From: a phage
Reading direction: 5' to 3' (one strand)
DNA: 41,222 nucleotides
Sequence record: NC_105863.1
Shown here: positions 3,377 to 39,407 of the stretch, piece by piece
How positions within the stretch are numbered: position 1 is the stretch's first letter
How the letters are laid out: each line of letters begins with the position of its first letter
The notes under the pieces: model-generated
What the model was told of the DNA's origin: nothing
Databases searched by the model: none
Seen by the model: the letters and a program-made list of their open reading frames with translations, nothing else
Translations under genes and position numbers: made by a program

Positions 3377-4453
3377 ATGCTATTAACTTTAGTACCACAG
3401 GGTTTAACTATGAGCTTACTTACATCCCTCATCAGCCATCAGATATGGCTGCAACGCACCGCATCCGGTGAGGTGAAAGACCTCGCACCGTTCATTCAGG
3501 AGATGCGGGATGAAATCAAACGGCAGGTGCTGTTATTCGGCGACGACGGGCGAAGCACTGCGCGGCTGAATAAACTGTTACGGGACCTTGAAGAAGCACT
3601 GACAGGGATTACAGGTGACTGGCAAACAAAGCTGACAGAAGACCTCAAGGAACTGGCGGCGTATGAGGCTGAGTGGAACGTAAAGACACTGACCGCCAAC
3701 GTAGCTGCGGAATTTGTTACGCCTACCGCTGAACAGGTGTGGGCTGCTGCCGAGTTTCAACCGTTATCGTTGAGCGACAAGCCTGTTGACTTCACTAAGC
3801 TGATGTCAGGTTGGGGTGAAACGGAAGTAGCACGTCTTGTAACCGGCGTTAAGATGGGCTTTGTACAAGGTCAAACAACACGGCAGATTGTTAAGAATGT
3901 AGTAGGCGCCGGTGGGCGGGCTGACATCTCTGAGCGTAACGCCGCTACCGTCATCCGCACCGCGCTGTCTCACGTGTCCAACGAAGCCCGTAACGAGACG
4001 TACCGCCAGAACGACGACATCATCGAGAAGTACGAGTGGGTGTCAACGCTTGACAGCCGCACCAGTACGATTTGCAGGGTCAGAGACGGGATGACGTGGG
4101 AAATTGGTAAGGGGCCGATGCCCCCTGCCCATCCGAACTGCCGGTCGTGCACGGCTCCGGTAATCAGTTCCGAGTTCGACTTCCTCGATAAAGGCGCAAA
4201 ACGCGCGGCTAAAGGCGCGGAAGGTGGCACTCAGGTAAGCGTAGACACCACTTACTACGAGTTCCTTAAACAACAACCGGCGTGGTTTCAGGACCAGGCG
4301 CTTGGTCCTGTTCGCGGTAAGATTTTCCGCAACAGCGGTATATCACCGGAAGAGTTTCGCGTAATATCTGTAGATGGTTTCGGGAATCCGCTCACGCTTA
4401 AGCAGATGGCGGAACTCGATAAACGTGTTGCTGATTATCTGAAAGGGGAATAA
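3377..4453 (+). CDS. head morphogenesis protein (minor head protein, Mu F / SPP1 gp7-like position)
   Basis: 358-aa ORF after portal; C-terminal Cys/His cluster (CRVRDG..HPNCRSC); alternative start ATG 3410. Product by synteny. Confidence 0.55.
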   Translation: MLLTLVPQGLTMSLLTSLISHQIWLQRTASGEVKDLAPFIQEMRDEIKRQVLLFGDDGRSTARLNKLLRDLEEALTGITGDWQTKLTEDLKELAAYEAEWNVKTLTANVAAEFVTPTAEQVWAAAEFQPLSLSDKPVDFTKLMSGWGETEVARLVTGVKMGFVQGQTTRQIVKNVVGAGGRADISERNAATVIRTALSHVSNEARNETYRQNDDIIEKYEWVSTLDSRTSTICRVRDGMTWEIGKGPMPPAHPNCRSCTAPVISSEFDFLDKGAKRAAKGAEGGTQVSVDTTYYEFLKQQPAWFQDQALGPVRGKIFRNSGISPEEFRVISVDGFGNPLTLKQMAELDKRVADYLKGE

Positions 4454-4914
4454 TGATGGGCTTTTTCAAAGTAACTGACGTACCGTCTCGTCGCGTAGTC
4501 CAGTACGCCCGCGTGTCTGGCTCTGGCGAGAACGTGGTGTTTATTGAAGACGAAAGTGTACTCGGAACACCAGTGGACGATATGCCGTTTGCGGACAAGA
4601 CCGGTATTGCGCTGCCAGCGGCAGGTATGCTTTACGAGATTCCGTACCTGGCGGATGCTGGTGATGTGTATTTCTCCGTACAACCGCAGGACGCTGAACT
4701 GGCAGACGGCAGCGCAAATATCGCTGTCGAAGTTAAGGCGGGCAAAGCACCATATGCGCTGACCTGGTACAAAGACGGGAAGGAAGTGGTAAACGCCCCG
4801 GAAGAGGCTCTGTCTCTGACGGTTAACGCAGTTGGTGAATACTTCGTTAAAGTCACTGATGCCGATGGTATAGAGGCCGTAAGTAAAGCAGCGAAGGTTA
4901 CTAAGCCAGAATAA
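4453..4914 (+). CDS. Ig-like domain protein (possible head decoration/accessory protein)
   Basis: 153 aa; C-terminal segment YALTWYKDGKEV..GEYFVKVTDADG resembles an Ig-like (I-set/Big) beta-sandwich signature; ATGATG overlap with upstream stop. Confidence 0.4.
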   Translation: MMGFFKVTDVPSRRVVQYARVSGSGENVVFIEDESVLGTPVDDMPFADKTGIALPAAGMLYEIPYLADAGDVYFSVQPQDAELADGSANIAVEVKAGKAPYALTWYKDGKEVVNAPEEALSLTVNAVGEYFVKVTDADGIEAVSKAAKVTKPE

Positions 4915-4918
4915 ACTG

Positions 4919-4941
4919 AAGCCCCGAAAGGGGCTTTTTAG
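4919..4941 (+). terminator. rho-independent terminator (GCCCCGAAAGGGGC + TTTTTA)
   Basis: GC-rich hairpin immediately after stop of 4453-4914 ORF followed by T-run. Confidence 0.6.
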
Positions 4942-4989
4942 TGCCTGTGATTATTCCAGTTATTCCACTCAATTGTAAATGTTGTAATA

Positions 4990-5005
4990 AACTATTCGAA
5001 TAGTT
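4990..5005. promoter_or_regulatory. perfect 16-bp palindrome AACTATTCGAATAGTT abutting a -35 element (candidate operator)
   Basis: Sequence equals its own reverse complement; half-site AACTAT/ATAGTT recurs at early promoters (26455, 30162, 32269). Confidence 0.4.
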
Positions 5006-5032
5006 GACTTTTCACCAAAAATGTGCTAAGCT
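5004..5032 (+). promoter_or_regulatory. sigma70-like promoter (TTGACT -17- TAAGCT with extended -10 TG)
   Basis: -35 TTGACT 5004-5009, 17-bp spacer, TGcTAAGCT at 5024-5032; located in 340-bp noncoding gap upstream of spanin genes. Confidence 0.45.
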
Positions 5033-5256
5033 CCACCTGAGCTTGTGAAGTATGAACAAGCGACCGCGGCGCGGGCAGGTAACGGAGCGGGACGTAAGTC
5101 CTGAGTGTAGTTACGCTGACGCGTTCGGAAGGGCCATACTCTATTGCTTGTGTAAAAAGTAACTGGTTTACTGAGATTACGCCGTTTCTATGTTTAAATG
5201 ATAAGGTCTAGCGCCCCGCTTTAAGGCGGGGCTTTACTTATCGAGAAAGGGGAAAC

Positions 5257-5643
5257 ATGAATCTTAAAGCAACTGTCGTAGCGGGAGCATGTTTCATCAT
5301 CCTGGCTTACGCACACGGCATCTACCAGTATCGCAGCGGCTGGAACGGAGGCCGGGCGAATCTCGTTTCGCAGCAACAGCAGAAAGCACAGGCTGAGTTA
5401 GCTAAGAAAACACAACGGCAGCAGCAGGATGAATCGAAGGCCGCCGCCGCTGATAACGAAGGCAAGACGAAATCAGAGGTAATCACCCGTGAAGTCGTTA
5501 AGTACATTAAAACGCCTGGCCGCAGTGTGTGCACTTTTGACCCTGAGCGCGTGCAGCTCAAGTCCCGCGCCGTCGCAAACGCCAATTCCATCCCCGGATA
5601 CGACGATGATGCAGCCGCCGTGCAAACTGGCACTGCCAAGTAA
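5257..5643 (+). CDS. i-spanin (Rz-like inner-membrane spanin subunit)
   Basis: 128 aa; N-terminal TM helix (VVAGACFIILAYAHGIY) followed by Gln/Ala/Lys-rich predicted coiled coil; RBS AGAAAGGGGA; overlaps a lipoprotein ORF in another frame. Confidence 0.65.
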   Translation: MNLKATVVAGACFIILAYAHGIYQYRSGWNGGRANLVSQQQQKAQAELAKKTQRQQQDESKAAAADNEGKTKSEVITREVVKYIKTPGRSVCTFDPERVQLKSRAVANANSIPGYDDDAAAVQTGTAK

Positions 5644-5752
5644 CGACGCGGACGAGGATTTAGCTATTGACGTCCAGAACACAGAATGTGTACGGCAACT
5701 GAGACTTAAAGTGTTCATGTTGCGGGATTACGTGAGGAATATTCTGGAATAG
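5489..5752 (+). CDS. o-spanin (Rz1-like outer-membrane lipoprotein)
   Basis: 87 aa; GTG start with RBS AGAGG; signal peptide ending in lipobox LTLSAC; Pro-rich mature part (SSSPAPSQTPIPSPDTT) with Cys residues; starts inside i-spanin gene in +1 frame and extends past its stop. Confidence 0.7.
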   Translation: MKSLSTLKRLAAVCALLTLSACSSSPAPSQTPIPSPDTTMMQPPCKLALPSNDADEDLAIDVQNTECVRQLRLKVFMLRDYVRNILE

Positions 5753-5831
5753 TTGCCTTGTATGTTGGAATAATTTATTCTTGACATGTAAATCCGGGTG
5801 GCCCGGATTCCAACGTCCAGGGGACATACTG

Positions 5832-6458
5832 ATGAGCGAAGAAGTGAAAGACGAAACTATCGAACAACAAGAGACTAAGACCACGTTTACCAAAGAAGAA
5901 GTTGACGCGCTGGTATCCGGTCTTAAAGCTAACAACGAGAAACTCTTGTCTGAAAAGAAAGCTGCCGCCGCTGCCGCGAAAGAAGCCGCAGATGCGAAGC
6001 TGAAAGCCGAACAGGAACGCGCAAAACAGAACGGCGAACTTGAGGCATTCGAGAAAACGTTGCGCAGTCAGTATGAGCCAGTACTCGCCGATAAAGACGG
6101 TAAGATTAGCAAAATGGCTGAGCGTATCCTCGGCGCGGAACGTAAATCAGTTATCAGCCAGTTGTCTGGAATGTTGATTGATGAGAGCGCAGCGGATATT
6201 ATCGCTATGATGGTCAAGACCGAATTTGACGGCGATGACGTTGTGACCAAGTTCACAGGTGCAGACGGTAATGTCATCACCACCGACGCAGAGCAATTTA
6301 AAAAGTATCTGCGTGAGCACAAAGCATTTTCGCATCTGATTAAAGCAGATGCAGCAACCGGCGGCGGGGCTTCCGGTAACAAAAATTCTACTGGCGGGGC
6401 CGGTGGTGCGGACGTAATCCAGCAAAAACTTAACGCCAAATACGGCAAACGAGGATAA
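5832..6458 (+). CDS. scaffolding protein
   Basis: Ala/Glu/Lys-rich, predicted coiled-coil ORF directly upstream of major capsid gene; likely start ATG 5832 (MSEEVKDE) with RBS; ORF track start 5781. Confidence 0.55.
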   Translation: MSEEVKDETIEQQETKTTFTKEEVDALVSGLKANNEKLLSEKKAAAAAAKEAADAKLKAEQERAKQNGELEAFEKTLRSQYEPVLADKDGKISKMAERILGAERKSVISQLSGMLIDESAADIIAMMVKTEFDGDDVVTKFTGADGNVITTDAEQFKKYLREHKAFSHLIKADAATGGGASGNKNSTGGAGGADVIQQKLNAKYGKRG

Positions 6459-6464
6459 CAGAAT

Positions 6465-7433
6465 ATGTCTCTGTCAGATATGAAGGTTTATAACGACGAT
6501 ATCGTCGGTACCACTATCGAACTGCTTGGTCAGAAAACTGACCAGTTTAACGCAGCCTCCGGTGGTGCAATTGTACTGTCTACCGCTTCATGGCGCGGTG
6601 ACTTCTCCCGTGAGTCTTTCTTTAACCAGATTGCCTCCGCTAAACGCCGCGTTGACCGTTACGCCGCTATCGCGTCTCAGGCAGCTACCGCGCTGACTCA
6701 GGGCGAGCATGTAGGCGTTAAAGTCGCTGGCGGCTTCGGACCGGTACTGTTCGAGCCTGCGCAAATGACTTGGCTTAACGAAGACCCGGCAAGCGCGATT
6801 CGTGCTATTTCCGAAGGCTTCTCTGACGCACTGTTAGCGGACCAGCTCAACACCGCTGTTGGCGCAGCTGTTGCTGCGGTATCTGGTCAGGCCGCGCTGG
6901 TTAACGACGTATCTGCAACCGCTGGCTTGTCCCTGAACGTGCTGAACAACAGCCACGCTAAATTCGGCGACCAGTCTCAGCTGCTGATTACCGACATCAT
7001 GACTGGTGCTGCTTATCACACGCTGGTAGATAAAGCGCTGACTAACGCAAACCAGCTGTTCGTTGCCGGTAACGTTATGGTTGTCGATGTTCTCGGCAAG
7101 CGTTACGTAATCTCTGACATTCCTGCGCTGTACGGGGCCGGTACTCCGAACAAGACTAAGGTCCTGTCCGTAGTTGCAAACGGCATCATCGTTGATAATG
7201 CTTCTGATATTATCAGCAACATTGATACCAGCAACGGTAACACCCGCATCCAGACCACCTGGCAGGCGGATTACAGCTTCGGCCTGAAACTGAAAGGCTA
7301 TAGCTGGGATGTCGCCAACGGCGGTAAATCTCCGCTGGACGCAGAACTGTTCACCGCGACCAACTGGGACAAAGCTGTTGCCGAGAACAAGCACACCCTC
7401 GGTACTCTGGCAATCGCCGACGCGGACAAGTAA
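6465..7433 (+). CDS. major capsid protein
   Basis: 322-aa ORF after scaffold, RBS GAGGA, followed by strong terminator at 7452-7474; assignment by synteny and size. Confidence 0.65.
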   Translation: MSLSDMKVYNDDIVGTTIELLGQKTDQFNAASGGAIVLSTASWRGDFSRESFFNQIASAKRRVDRYAAIASQAATALTQGEHVGVKVAGGFGPVLFEPAQMTWLNEDPASAIRAISEGFSDALLADQLNTAVGAAVAAVSGQAALVNDVSATAGLSLNVLNNSHAKFGDQSQLLITDIMTGAAYHTLVDKALTNANQLFVAGNVMVVDVLGKRYVISDIPALYGAGTPNKTKVLSVVANGIIVDNASDIISNIDTSNGNTRIQTTWQADYSFGLKLKGYSWDVANGGKSPLDAELFTATNWDKAVAENKHTLGTLAIADADK

Positions 7434-7451: not shown

Positions 7452-7474
7452 AAAGGGGCTACGGCCCCTTTTTA
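7452..7474 (+). terminator. rho-independent terminator (AAAGGGGC-TACG-GCCCCTTTTT)
   Basis: Hairpin plus T-run immediately after major capsid stop codon. Confidence 0.7.
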
Positions 7475-11810: not shown

Positions 11811-12295
11811 TATTTATCACTCCCATGTGGTTTTAAGTGTGTAGAGTTCCCGTTACAGTCGTATTCAGTAACTGCGTGAGTGGTTATGCCGAGTTCGCGG
11901 AAATGCTTTATTACCGCTGGAGAGTCGTCGAATGCACACAAGATTCTCTCCGGCCCAATAGCACGCAACACCTCTTCTTTAATTACGATGTCTTTTCTGT
12001 TGTCGTGTTTGCTGCGCATGATTAACTGATAAAATTCGACGCGGTGGCGCTGCAACCACATTCTGGTTTCTTTTTCCGCGTCATCACTACGGCCTGTTAA
12101 GATAATAACGGCATAGCGACGATTAAGGGCGTTACACAGTTCGATGTTATCTTTAATGGGTGCATCGTCTTTGCACGCCATGTTAAATGGTTTCCACGCC
12201 CAGGTTTCGCCGTAGTTATCTTTCGGCAGCAGGTGTAAACGATGAGTACCATCTGCCAATGTCCCGTCTAAATCGAAAATCACAATATCTTTCAT
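11810..12295 (-). CDS. HAD-superfamily phosphatase (nucleotidase / polynucleotide phosphatase-like)
   Basis: N-terminal HAD motif I IVIFDLDGTL; 161 aa; start overlaps upstream stop. Confidence 0.6.
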   Translation of the reverse strand: MKDIVIFDLDGTLADGTHRLHLLPKDNYGETWAWKPFNMACKDDAPIKDNIELCNALNRRYAVIILTGRSDDAEKETRMWLQRHRVEFYQLIMRSKHDNRKDIVIKEEVLRAIGPERILCAFDDSPAVIKHFRELGITTHAVTEYDCNGNSTHLKPHGSDK

Positions 12296-13722: not shown

Positions 13723-13828
13723 TAATGTGTTAGAATTATTTTGCGCCTAGTGTCGCACACGAAAAGCGGGTGGTTCCCGCCTGGCGCATTAACCTTAACC
13801 AGTAACCTCTTAACCAAAGGATTAAATA

Positions 13829-35502: not shown

Positions 35503-35532
35503 TTGAAAGTTCTTGACACATGTTTGTATAAT
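35503..35532 (+). promoter_or_regulatory. sigma70-like promoter for rightward transcription (TTGAAA -18- TATAAT)
   Basis: Consensus -10 TATAAT at 35527-35532; divergent from 35437-35465. Confidence 0.5.
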
Positions 35533-38367: not shown

Positions 38368-38676
38368 TTGGATAAATTTACTGAAACAGTGACGGGGTGG
38401 CTTCTCGCTGCCGCACTGGTCGGAGGGGTTATAGGACTACGACAACATAAGTCCGTTATCTCCGGCCCTATCGACGGCTTCTGCTTTATTGCAACGGGCT
38501 TCACCAGCGCCGTATTTGGCGCACCTCTTGCGGCTCAATGGTTTGGTATTACCGGTGAGCGCGAGATAGCTGGCCTCGGATTCATCATTGCCATTCTCTG
38601 GATGCCTATCTATTCCCGCCTTTCTGGCATCGTATCGGGCGGCGATATTGCCCGCCCAGGAGGACCGCATGACTGA
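38368..38676 (+). CDS. holin (three predicted TM helices), TTG start
   Basis: TTG 38368 preceded by GGAGG at 7 nt; three hydrophobic segments; directly upstream of endolysin. Confidence 0.55.
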   Translation: MDKFTETVTGWLLAAALVGGVIGLRQHKSVISGPIDGFCFIATGFTSAVFGAPLAAQWFGITGEREIAGLGFIIAILWMPIYSRLSGIVSGGDIARPGGPHD

Positions 38677-38941
38677 GTTATTCTGGTTTGTCGTAATGCT
38701 GGCAATGGGCGCTTCGTCCCTGTTCAACGTGTATAATGAACGCGTGGACGACGGGCTGTTCGGGCGTGTTCTCTATATCCTGACTGCTATCGTCTGTGCC
38801 GCCGGATGTATTCACCTGTTACAGGGCAGCATGTCGCCTACGCTGCCTGAGACATTAATCACATTAGTCGCGCTGCGCCAGATTCGCCAGGCGTGGCTGT
38901 CATACGGAGGGCATAAGCGTGTCTCGAAATATTTCAGATAA
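38669..38941 (+). CDS. second lysis-associated membrane protein (two TM; holin/antiholin candidate)
   Basis: ATG 38669 with RBS AGGAGG; 90 aa; overlaps holin 3' end and endolysin 5' end. Confidence 0.45.
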   Translation: MTELFWFVVMLAMGASSLFNVYNERVDDGLFGRVLYILTAIVCAAGCIHLLQGSMSPTLPETLITLVALRQIRQAWLSYGGHKRVSKYFR

Positions 38942-39407
38942 TGGATTGCATTTCTGCGCCGCGTTCGAGGGATTCCGCGGAACTGCGTATCGCGCTACGC
39001 CGAACGAGAAGTACCTGACTATTGGTTATGGTCACTACGGGCCAGACGTAACACCAGGTAAGACCATCACACCAGGACAAGGCCTCCTGTTACTGAATCG
39101 CGATATGGCTAAGGCCGTAGCTGCGGTCGATGCAGCAGCACACCATTCGCTGACACAGGCACAGTTCGACGCTGTGTGTGACCTGGTGTATAACGCAGGT
39201 GCTGGCGTGATTGCGTCTACTACGGGCACAGGCAAGGCACTGCGTTCTGGTGCTATTACGACGCTGCGGGCTAAGCTGGCGCTGTTCATCAACCAGAACG
39301 GCAAACCGTTACTTGGCCTGCGTCGCCGTACCGCAGGACGTCTGGCATTGTTCGACGGTAAACCGTGGCAGGAGGCTGAGGCAATCGGGCGTGCGGTGAA
39401 AGGTTGA
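38919..39407 (+). CDS. endolysin, T4-type lysozyme (glycoside hydrolase family 24)
   Basis: N-terminal catalytic signature AAFEGFRGTAYRATPNEKYLTIGYGHYG; GTG start with RBS GGAGG. Confidence 0.8.
   Translation: MSRNISDNGLHFCAAFEGFRGTAYRATPNEKYLTIGYGHYGPDVTPGKTITPGQGLLLLNRDMAKAVAAVDAAAHHSLTQAQFDAVCDLVYNAGAGVIASTTGTGKALRSGAITTLRAKLALFINQNGKPLLGLRRRTAGRLALFDGKPWQEAEAIGRAVKG

Follow-up and report, generated by a model that had tools for sequence, protein, structure and literature searches.

An overlapped spanin pair of the Jersey family in the head module of a K1H-type Kagunavirus, preceded by a conserved promoter-like site and structured leader

Two overlapping open reading frames between phage head genes raise the question of whether they encode a spanin pair and, if so, what their distance from the other lysis genes means. 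An initial annotation, made from the sequence, had read them as an i-spanin and an o-spanin under their own promoter, about 33 kb from holin and endolysin, and took the separation to imply different timing or regulation. The window analysed here is the whole stretch of phage DNA (NC_105863.1, 41,222 nucleotides). The features of the pair are as follows.

5257-5643, plus strand: i-spanin gene, Rz-like, Jersey family (ATG 5257 to TAA 5643, 128 aa; PHROG 2536; K1H gp06)
5269-5325, plus strand: putative N-terminal transmembrane segment of the i-spanin, residues 5-23 (Kyte-Doolittle maximum 1.72; inside AF2 helix 3-63)
5244-5252, plus strand: Shine-Dalgarno-like sequence of the i-spanin, AGAAAGGGG (read from the sequence; GAAAGG(G/A)G kept in both genera, Kagunavirus and Jerseyvirus)
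5489-5752, plus strand: o-spanin gene in the +1 frame (GTG 5489 to TAG 5752, 87 aa; PHROG 5672/1267; K1H gp07)
5543-5554, plus strand: o-spanin lipobox L-S-A-C, residues 19-22 (regex match; Cys22 is the predicted lipidation site, with Ser23 at +2)
5475-5479, plus strand: Shine-Dalgarno-like AGAGG of the o-spanin, 9 nt before the GTG (GAGG kept upstream of the start in all Kagunavirus loci)

The coordinates given earlier for the first ORF, and its N-terminal transmembrane helix, were right. The top 19-residue hydrophobic window of the 128-aa product, ATVVAGACFIILAYAHGIY, started at residue 5 (Kyte-Doolittle 1.72), and no second hydrophobic segment was present. AF2, run on the single sequence with no alignment, gave one continuous helix over residues 3-63 with a pLDDT of about 70, and low confidence for residues 68-128. 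Two helices and a beta-containing linker have been predicted for the i-spanins of the Jersey subfamily (Kongari 2018, PMC6139136); a single periplasmic helix was seen here because the AF2 model was of low confidence over the C-terminal half. The protein matched the PHROG family phrog_2536, "Rz-like spanin", over its full length (E=1e-56). A Pfam search with the spanin pair gave no significant match, DUF2514 (E=0.016) being below its cut-off.

The second ORF was also found as claimed, with a GTG start at 5489 and AGAGG as ribosome binding site; it is in the +1 frame, since (5489-5257) mod 3 = 1. The two ORFs share 155 nt, and the o-spanin ORF extends 109 nt past the i-spanin stop, so the architecture is overlapped and not embedded. 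The signal peptide MKSLSTLKRLAAVCALLTLSA, followed by Cys and then by Ser at +2 (no Asp), fits the PROSITE-style lipobox rule. The mature protein of 66 aa contains 8 Pro, 7 of them in the first 25 residues, and further Cys at positions 45 and 67, in agreement with the Pro-rich, Cys-containing region described initially. AF2 predicted a signal helix, a disordered stretch (residues 20-54) and a confident C-terminal helix (residues 55-86). Matches to two "Rz-like spanin" PHROG families, phrog_5672 (E=2e-28) and phrog_1267 (E=2e-19), were obtained. A lipoprotein-signal scan of the whole window (41 kb) gave no other credible candidate besides the o-spanin ORF.

Conservation was studied in 48 related loci obtained from an IMG/VR scan with the i-spanin, and diversity was computed on the 40 distinct sequences. 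Both frames were intact in 48/48 loci, and all 48 kept Cys92 of the i-spanin as well as the o-spanin lipobox Cys (LSAC, LASC, or LNGC in Jerseyvirus) and both further Cys. Before the overlap, diversity in the 40 sequences followed frame 0, with values of 0.107, 0.083 and 0.231 at codon positions 1, 2 and 3. Past the i-spanin stop it followed the +1 frame, the o-frame positions 1, 2 and 3 having 0.086, 0.034 and 0.246. The third-position peaks, first in frame 0 and then in the +1 frame, therefore point to protein-level selection on both frames. Conservation across the 48 loci and the frame-specific diversity ruled out a chance ORF for the o-spanin.

Phage K1H has ORFs of equal length (387 and 264 bp) at the same place, annotated "Rz-like spanin". 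Identity to K1H gp06/gp07 (YP_009168838/YP_009168839) was 100% for the i-spanin and 97% for the o-spanin; identity of the spanins to the Jerseyvirus loci was 64-76%. The 27-member "Jersey" family, which includes K1H, K1G, K1ind1-3, SETP3, SSL-2009a and HK578, is the largest overlapped spanin family and is characterized by a 155-bp overlap, invariant o-spanin Cys45/Cys67 and an LNGC lipobox variant (Kongari 2018, PMC6139136). The 155-nt overlap and Cys45/Cys67 of this published family are reproduced in the window. Compared to K1H gp06/gp07 and the Jersey family, the lengths (128/87 aa), the overlap, Cys45/Cys67 and the one periplasmic i-spanin Cys are the same; the pair also has the place of gp06/gp07 between Hoc-like and scaffold genes, and differs from them by a few o-spanin substitutions. 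PHROG families, the K1H annotation and the Jersey family of Kongari 2018 thus bear out both the spanin identity and the overlapped +1 architecture. Very probably (about 0.93), the pair is an ordinary member of the published Jersey family of overlapped two-component spanins, located where K1H-like Kagunavirus genomes usually have it.

Some siphophage lipoproteins are exclusion factors, and on the map the pair is unlinked from the lysis cassette. A membrane protein and lipoprotein with another role, e.g. superinfection exclusion as for Cor or Llp, could be considered on these grounds. This role is highly improbable, as the lipoprotein overlaps a type-II membrane protein, periplasmic Cys are kept in both, the family is curated as spanins, and the lipoprotein scan of the window offered no other spanin candidate.

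For the spanin pair, a mechanism can be inferred from the sequence signals and from experiments on lambda Rz/Rz1 and T4 PseT.3/PseT.2. The 128-aa protein would insert into the inner membrane through its N-terminal helix and expose a largely helical periplasmic stalk. The 87-aa protein would be exported, lipidated at Cys22, cleaved by signal peptidase II and, having Ser at +2, sorted to the outer membrane. The two would bind through their periplasmic parts, with homodimers probably stabilised by disulfides at Cys92 of the i-spanin and at Cys45 and Cys67 of the o-spanin. After removal of peptidoglycan by holin and endolysin, the complex would fuse or disrupt both membranes, and this outer-membrane break would be the last lysis step.

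Lambda Rz/Rz1 likewise consists of a type-II inner-membrane protein and a Pro-rich outer-membrane lipoprotein in the +1 frame, with periplasmic Cys, and the mechanism is presumed to be shared. The pair in the window is overlapped, whereas Rz1 is embedded, and its mature o-spanin has 66 aa with a confident C-terminal helix compared to 40 aa without predicted structure in lambda. The PHROG families also differ, and the spanins of the window are not adjacent to holin and endolysin. Phage T4 is the textbook case of unlinked spanins. As in the window, the T4 genes PseT.3/PseT.2 lie away from the holin and endolysin genes, but they are separated from each other and belong to a different family, while those of the window overlap. 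T4 also has a larger o-spanin with a predicted C-terminal helix, as in the window (PMC6139136).

The position of the pair was determined relative to the following genes.

38368-38676, plus strand: holin gene (PHROG E=1e-29; K1H gp46-48 for this and the next two)
38669-38941, plus strand: second holin gene (PHROG E=5e-35)
38919-39407, plus strand: endolysin gene (PHROG E=4e-39)
3377-4453: head-morphogenesis gene, Mu F-like, upstream of the spanins
4453-4914: Hoc-like decoration gene, upstream of the spanins
5832-6458: scaffold gene, downstream of the spanins
6465-7433: major capsid gene, downstream of the spanins

PHROG matches confirmed holin and endolysin at 38368-39407, and the lipoprotein-signal scan of the window gave no further spanin or lipoprotein beside the endolysin. 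For the second holin, the listed ORF (38588-38941, 117 aa) starts at TTG; the PHROG match and the K1H annotation favour ATG 38669 (90 aa), which gives an 8-nt overlap with the end of the first holin gene. The pair does sit between head genes, as had been stated, with the Hoc-like gene upstream and the scaffold and major capsid genes downstream.

The distance of about 33 kb holds on the linear map and not on the circle. A 1.2-kb query around the spanin pair matched 195 phage records; the best matches, at 99.5%, were all Kagunavirus or relatives, and in many of these records "putative spanin (x2)" or "Rz-like spanin (x2)" was already annotated under the match. The first 25 kb of the window are colinear with K1H-type phages. 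An 800-nt junction query, composed of the last 400 nt and the first 400 nt of the window, aligned without a break to K1G, K1H and others, and the K1H record was deposited as circular. Because the junction aligns in one piece and K1H is circular, the window is taken to be the whole, circularly closed genome of a K1H-type Kagunavirus (Guernseyvirinae), with the small terminase gene at its start. Given the circular junction in K1G and K1H, the endolysin stop precedes the i-spanin start by only 7,071 nt (7.07 kb), both genes being on the same strand; the figure of 33 kb measures the longer arc and is due to where the circular map was opened.

The order head-morphogenesis gene, Hoc-like gene, spanins, scaffold gene was kept in 48/48 loci of both genera, Kagunavirus and Jerseyvirus. 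Spanins of the same family are found in Dhillonvirus (SSL-2009a gp05/gp06, HK578), also in the head module upstream of the scaffold gene. In SSL-2009a, unlike the window, the i-spanin gene begins inside the last part of the head-morphogenesis gene; a Hoc-like gene and an intergenic leader are both missing, and the leader model described below gave no match. Judged from these sequences, the head-module position is ancestral for the spanins of Guernseyvirinae and Dhillonvirus. The pair itself is already known: its placement is annotated in K1H, and Kagunavirus papers have remarked on its separation from holin and endolysin. The initial spanin call is thus correct but ordinary, because related phages have the same pair at this position, where it has already been annotated and published.

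Several further observations were made in the head module and downstream of it. K1H annotates a TTG start for the scaffold gene (window 5781) that has no Shine-Dalgarno sequence. ATG 5832, with GGGGA before it, looks better, and the PHROG scaffold profile aligns from residue 3 of this shorter form. Scaffold and major capsid (5832-7433; K1H type, Pfam Gp13-like) are shared at 97-100% with a few loci only. Across the loci L003-L048 the module appears to have been exchanged: most Kagunavirus and Jerseyvirus scaffolds are 60-67% identical and the capsid gave no tblastn match, while the flanking spanins are 64-98% identical. A strong bidirectional terminator-like hairpin (7452-7471) directly follows the capsid gene, and the next gene starts 18 nt on, at GTG 7490. 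This gap leaves no room for a promoter, so that transcription of the head-tail and tail genes beyond it must depend on read-through. An Rfam match to int-alpA RNA (13740-13804, plus strand; 36.9 bits against a gathering score of 35.8) lies inside the tail-assembly-chaperone gene, as placed by offset from the K1H map.

The region upstream of the pair, for which a promoter of its own had been claimed, contains the following features.

4919-4936, no strand assigned: terminator-like hairpin after the Hoc-like gene (TTTTT next on the plus strand; compensatory changes in Jerseyvirus)
5004-5032, plus strand: promoter-like site with -35 TTGACT (5004-5009), TG (5024-5025) and -10 TAAGCT (5027-5032), conserved in all loci
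5041-5137, plus strand: structured leader with P1 hairpin (5041-5061), 65-nt irregular hairpin (5064-5128) and invariant UUCGGAAGGGCC (5124-5135)
5213-5232, plus strand: GC-rich hairpin just before the spanin ribosome binding site (8-pair stem, 7 G-C; compensatory changes C-G to G-C or U-A)

TTGACT and TAAGCT are separated by a 17-nt spacer containing the TG. A consensus promoter scan did not list this site, which fell below the threshold because of its weak -10 hexamer TAAGCT. A conserved leader of about 215 nt separates the promoter-like site from the i-spanin ATG. The U tract after the hairpin at 5213-5232 is poor in Kagunavirus (UUUACUU) and nearly absent in Jerseyvirus (UUAGCGU), and the hairpin would be at best a weak terminator. 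The claim of an own promoter therefore stood in part: a promoter-like site is conserved at 5004-5032, but it is below the consensus threshold and is followed by the leader of about 215 nt and the GC hairpin before the spanin ATG. A promoter for the spanins is plausible at the level of a consensus comparison. Expression would most likely start from the site at 5004-5032 and pass through the 215-nt structured leader, and read-through from the upstream head genes may add to it. The literature gave nothing usable on transcript maps of the subfamily, and the one Kagunavirus time-course paper does not report the spanin genes.

Is the pair transcribed as a unit from its own promoter, with a timing or dosage other than that of holin and endolysin? 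The conserved promoter-like site comes right after the terminator-like hairpin closing the Hoc-like gene, and holin and endolysin belong to another unit, with terminator-like and promoter-like sites between them and the terminase genes. The same promoter and leader module is also found at the early rightward promoter position in relatives, suggesting a working promoter. Against this, the Dhillonvirus pair abuts the head-morphogenesis gene so closely that a promoter would not fit in between; the spanins therefore do not need separate control to function. Lambda spanins are produced all through late infection and are inert until the wall has been degraded. Since they accumulate harmlessly up to that point, there is no indication that spanin timing matters. 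Different timing or dosage, as implied by the initial annotation, is accordingly possible but rather unlikely, and ordinary spanins in their usual place remain the preferred reading.

Side observations were made on both flanks of the spanin unit. The gap between the Hoc-like gene and the leader is an insertion hot spot (4937-4950); its length is about 340 bp in the window and reaches about 1.1 kb in relatives. There the cargo, on the reverse strand, is for example a 242-aa DNA methyltransferase-like ORF (L011, 1900-2628, minus strand) or a 173-aa ORF (L009, 2103-2624, minus strand), and the insertion is always upstream of TATTCCAGTTATTCC. Both genera also conserve a promoter-like site on the minus strand (4950-4979; TTTACA, 18 nt with TG, AATAAT), which overlaps the direct repeats TTATTCC-AG-TTATTCC and is oriented divergently from the adjoining spanin-side promoter. 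Where relatives have reverse-strand cargo, those genes would be transcribed from it. GGAATA half-sites cluster at the o-spanin end and just after it (5736-5809): GGAATATTCTGGAATAG ... GGAATAATTTATTC. They are followed by TTGACA (5781-5786) and by a hairpin (5791-5809) with compensatory changes in Jerseyvirus. The block 5736-5809 resembles the one upstream of the spanin promoter and might either bind a regulator or provide the scaffold and capsid genes with a second promoter. Genome-wide, GGAATAA-NN-TATTC had 7 matches at 2 mismatches compared to 2.6 expected by chance, and the only intergenic ones were at 4984 and 5767; the case for a genome-wide regulatory site is weak.

The structured leader was found to have the same architecture when each sequence variant was folded independently. 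A covariance model built from eight Kagunavirus variants had a sole match in the window (5062-5137, 106.5 bits) and one copy before the spanins in every related locus, the diverged Jerseyvirus copies scoring 35-43 bits. No match was found in Dhillonvirus, Klebsiella phage Kp4885-1 or the whole HK022 genome (HK022 at E<=1). In the alignment, which was model-guided, fitted to the model and hence favours the structure, 95.7% of the cells were paired and 11/23 pairs had compensatory changes. The observed covariation was reached by 0/500 shuffles, and slid controls had 1-4 compensatory pairs. Conserved G-U pairs indicate that the structure forms in the plus-strand RNA. The 65-nt hairpin has a conserved asymmetric internal loop (GGAGC / GAGUGUA). 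The fold of the whole region was not unusual (z = -1.56). By blastn, the promoter-to-leader module (5004-5137) had at least 95% identity in 177/180 phage records, and under it these records hold no feature or at most "hypothetical protein". A usable description of the leader was not found in the literature.

A number of roles for the leader were rejected. As to a known RNA family, Rfam had none for it at gathering scores, with only noise at E<=10. Hiding of the spanin ribosome binding site was not supported in either genus: in Jerseyvirus, shuffling the leader did not make the Shine-Dalgarno sequence and AUG more accessible by prediction (fractions 0.39-0.88), and in Kagunavirus the native leader gave only marginally lower accessibility than shuffled ones (0.07). 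As to a leader-encoded peptide, a 36-aa ORF (5052-5162) starts within the P1 hairpin, which is deleted in Jerseyvirus; a mini-ORF after GGAAGGG was not conserved.

A second, diverged leader copy of 73 nt was found by a pattern scan in several Kagunaviruses, with the same -35 and -10 hexamers and 5' hairpin. The loose DNA pattern used on viral contigs gave mostly chance matches, and a stricter one still took in one unrelated coding sequence. The second copy lies 11.6 kb upstream, flanked by a divergent helix-turn-helix gene and by the first small rightward gene; some Kagunaviruses thus have it behind the early rightward promoter, where it heads the early rightward operon. Copies of the module were located as follows.

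11817-11950, minus strand, of locus L195: copy of the promoter and leader module
L188, L189, L240, L096, L215, L221, L235 and L203: further loci with a copy

The covariance model, run over the whole window, found no second copy there, only the spanin-proximal one. At the homologous early position the window has a near-consensus promoter, TTGAAA-18-TATAAT (35503-35532), with a different hairpin. This exchange of promoter and leader at the early position is the best argument for the module being a working promoter with a functional leader.

Three functions were considered for the leader. It might be an RNA that counteracts termination or pausing in cis, as HK022 put or a nut site does. RNA polymerase that has started at the promoter would then be able to pass the GC hairpin at 5213-5232 and the post-capsid terminator at 7452-7471, and so reach the tail genes. 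The location directly downstream of the promoter, the two stem-loops and the strong covariation are in agreement with this function. So are the copy number of one or two per genome, every copy immediately following a promoter that heads a long rightward operon, and the terminator-like hairpins within the operon, where the space after 7471 is too short for a new promoter. HK022 put RNAs are also promoter-proximal, fold about 70-100 nt into two stem-loops, and occur in up to two copies per genome heading long terminator-containing operons. The leader, however, has one long irregular hairpin and a short 5' hairpin in place of two long stems. The covariance model did not match HK022, which leaves the leader without resemblance to put in sequence or structure, and a put-like element identified by similarity was rejected. 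Antitermination is made less probable by this, by the missing second copy in the window itself, and by the fact that partial termination without an antiterminator is common in phage late operons; overall it appears unlikely.

Somewhat better placed, and still tentative, is the reading that the leader serves mRNA processing or stability, e.g. as an RNase III site of the kind found in T7 early RNA, or else forms the 5' portion of a small RNA that ends at the 5213-5232 hairpin. A long irregular hairpin with the asymmetric internal loop described above could serve such a function, a promoter followed by about 190 nt and a GC hairpin has the layout of a small RNA gene, and the nucleotide conservation across the phage records is extreme. 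The poor U tract of the 3' hairpin, almost none in Jerseyvirus, and the resulting weak terminator speak against it, as do the whole-region z-score and the lack of a matching known RNA family.

Beyond the ordinary spanin identity of the pair, a broader proposal can be made at low probability. The pair may be the leading cistron in a unit that begins with an undescribed promoter and leader module (5004-5137), with the leader representing a new class of cis-acting elongation or termination RNA, put- or nut-like, for the long rightward operons of Guernseyvirinae. We consider this rather improbable. If true, the leader would set the dose of spanins, scaffold and capsid proteins.

The analysis of the pair indicates that reading the sequence alone can find overlapped o-spanin genes, which are often missed by gene callers. 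It also illustrates that lysis genes need not cluster, as was already known from T4 and from the Kagunavirus relatives. The leader RNA, unannotated and strongly covarying, is a useful by-product of the spanin analysis and worth a separate look. Guernseyvirinae find wide use in phage therapy and biocontrol of E. coli K1 and Salmonella, and if the leader regulates transcription elongation or mRNA fate, it would provide a new handle on gene expression.
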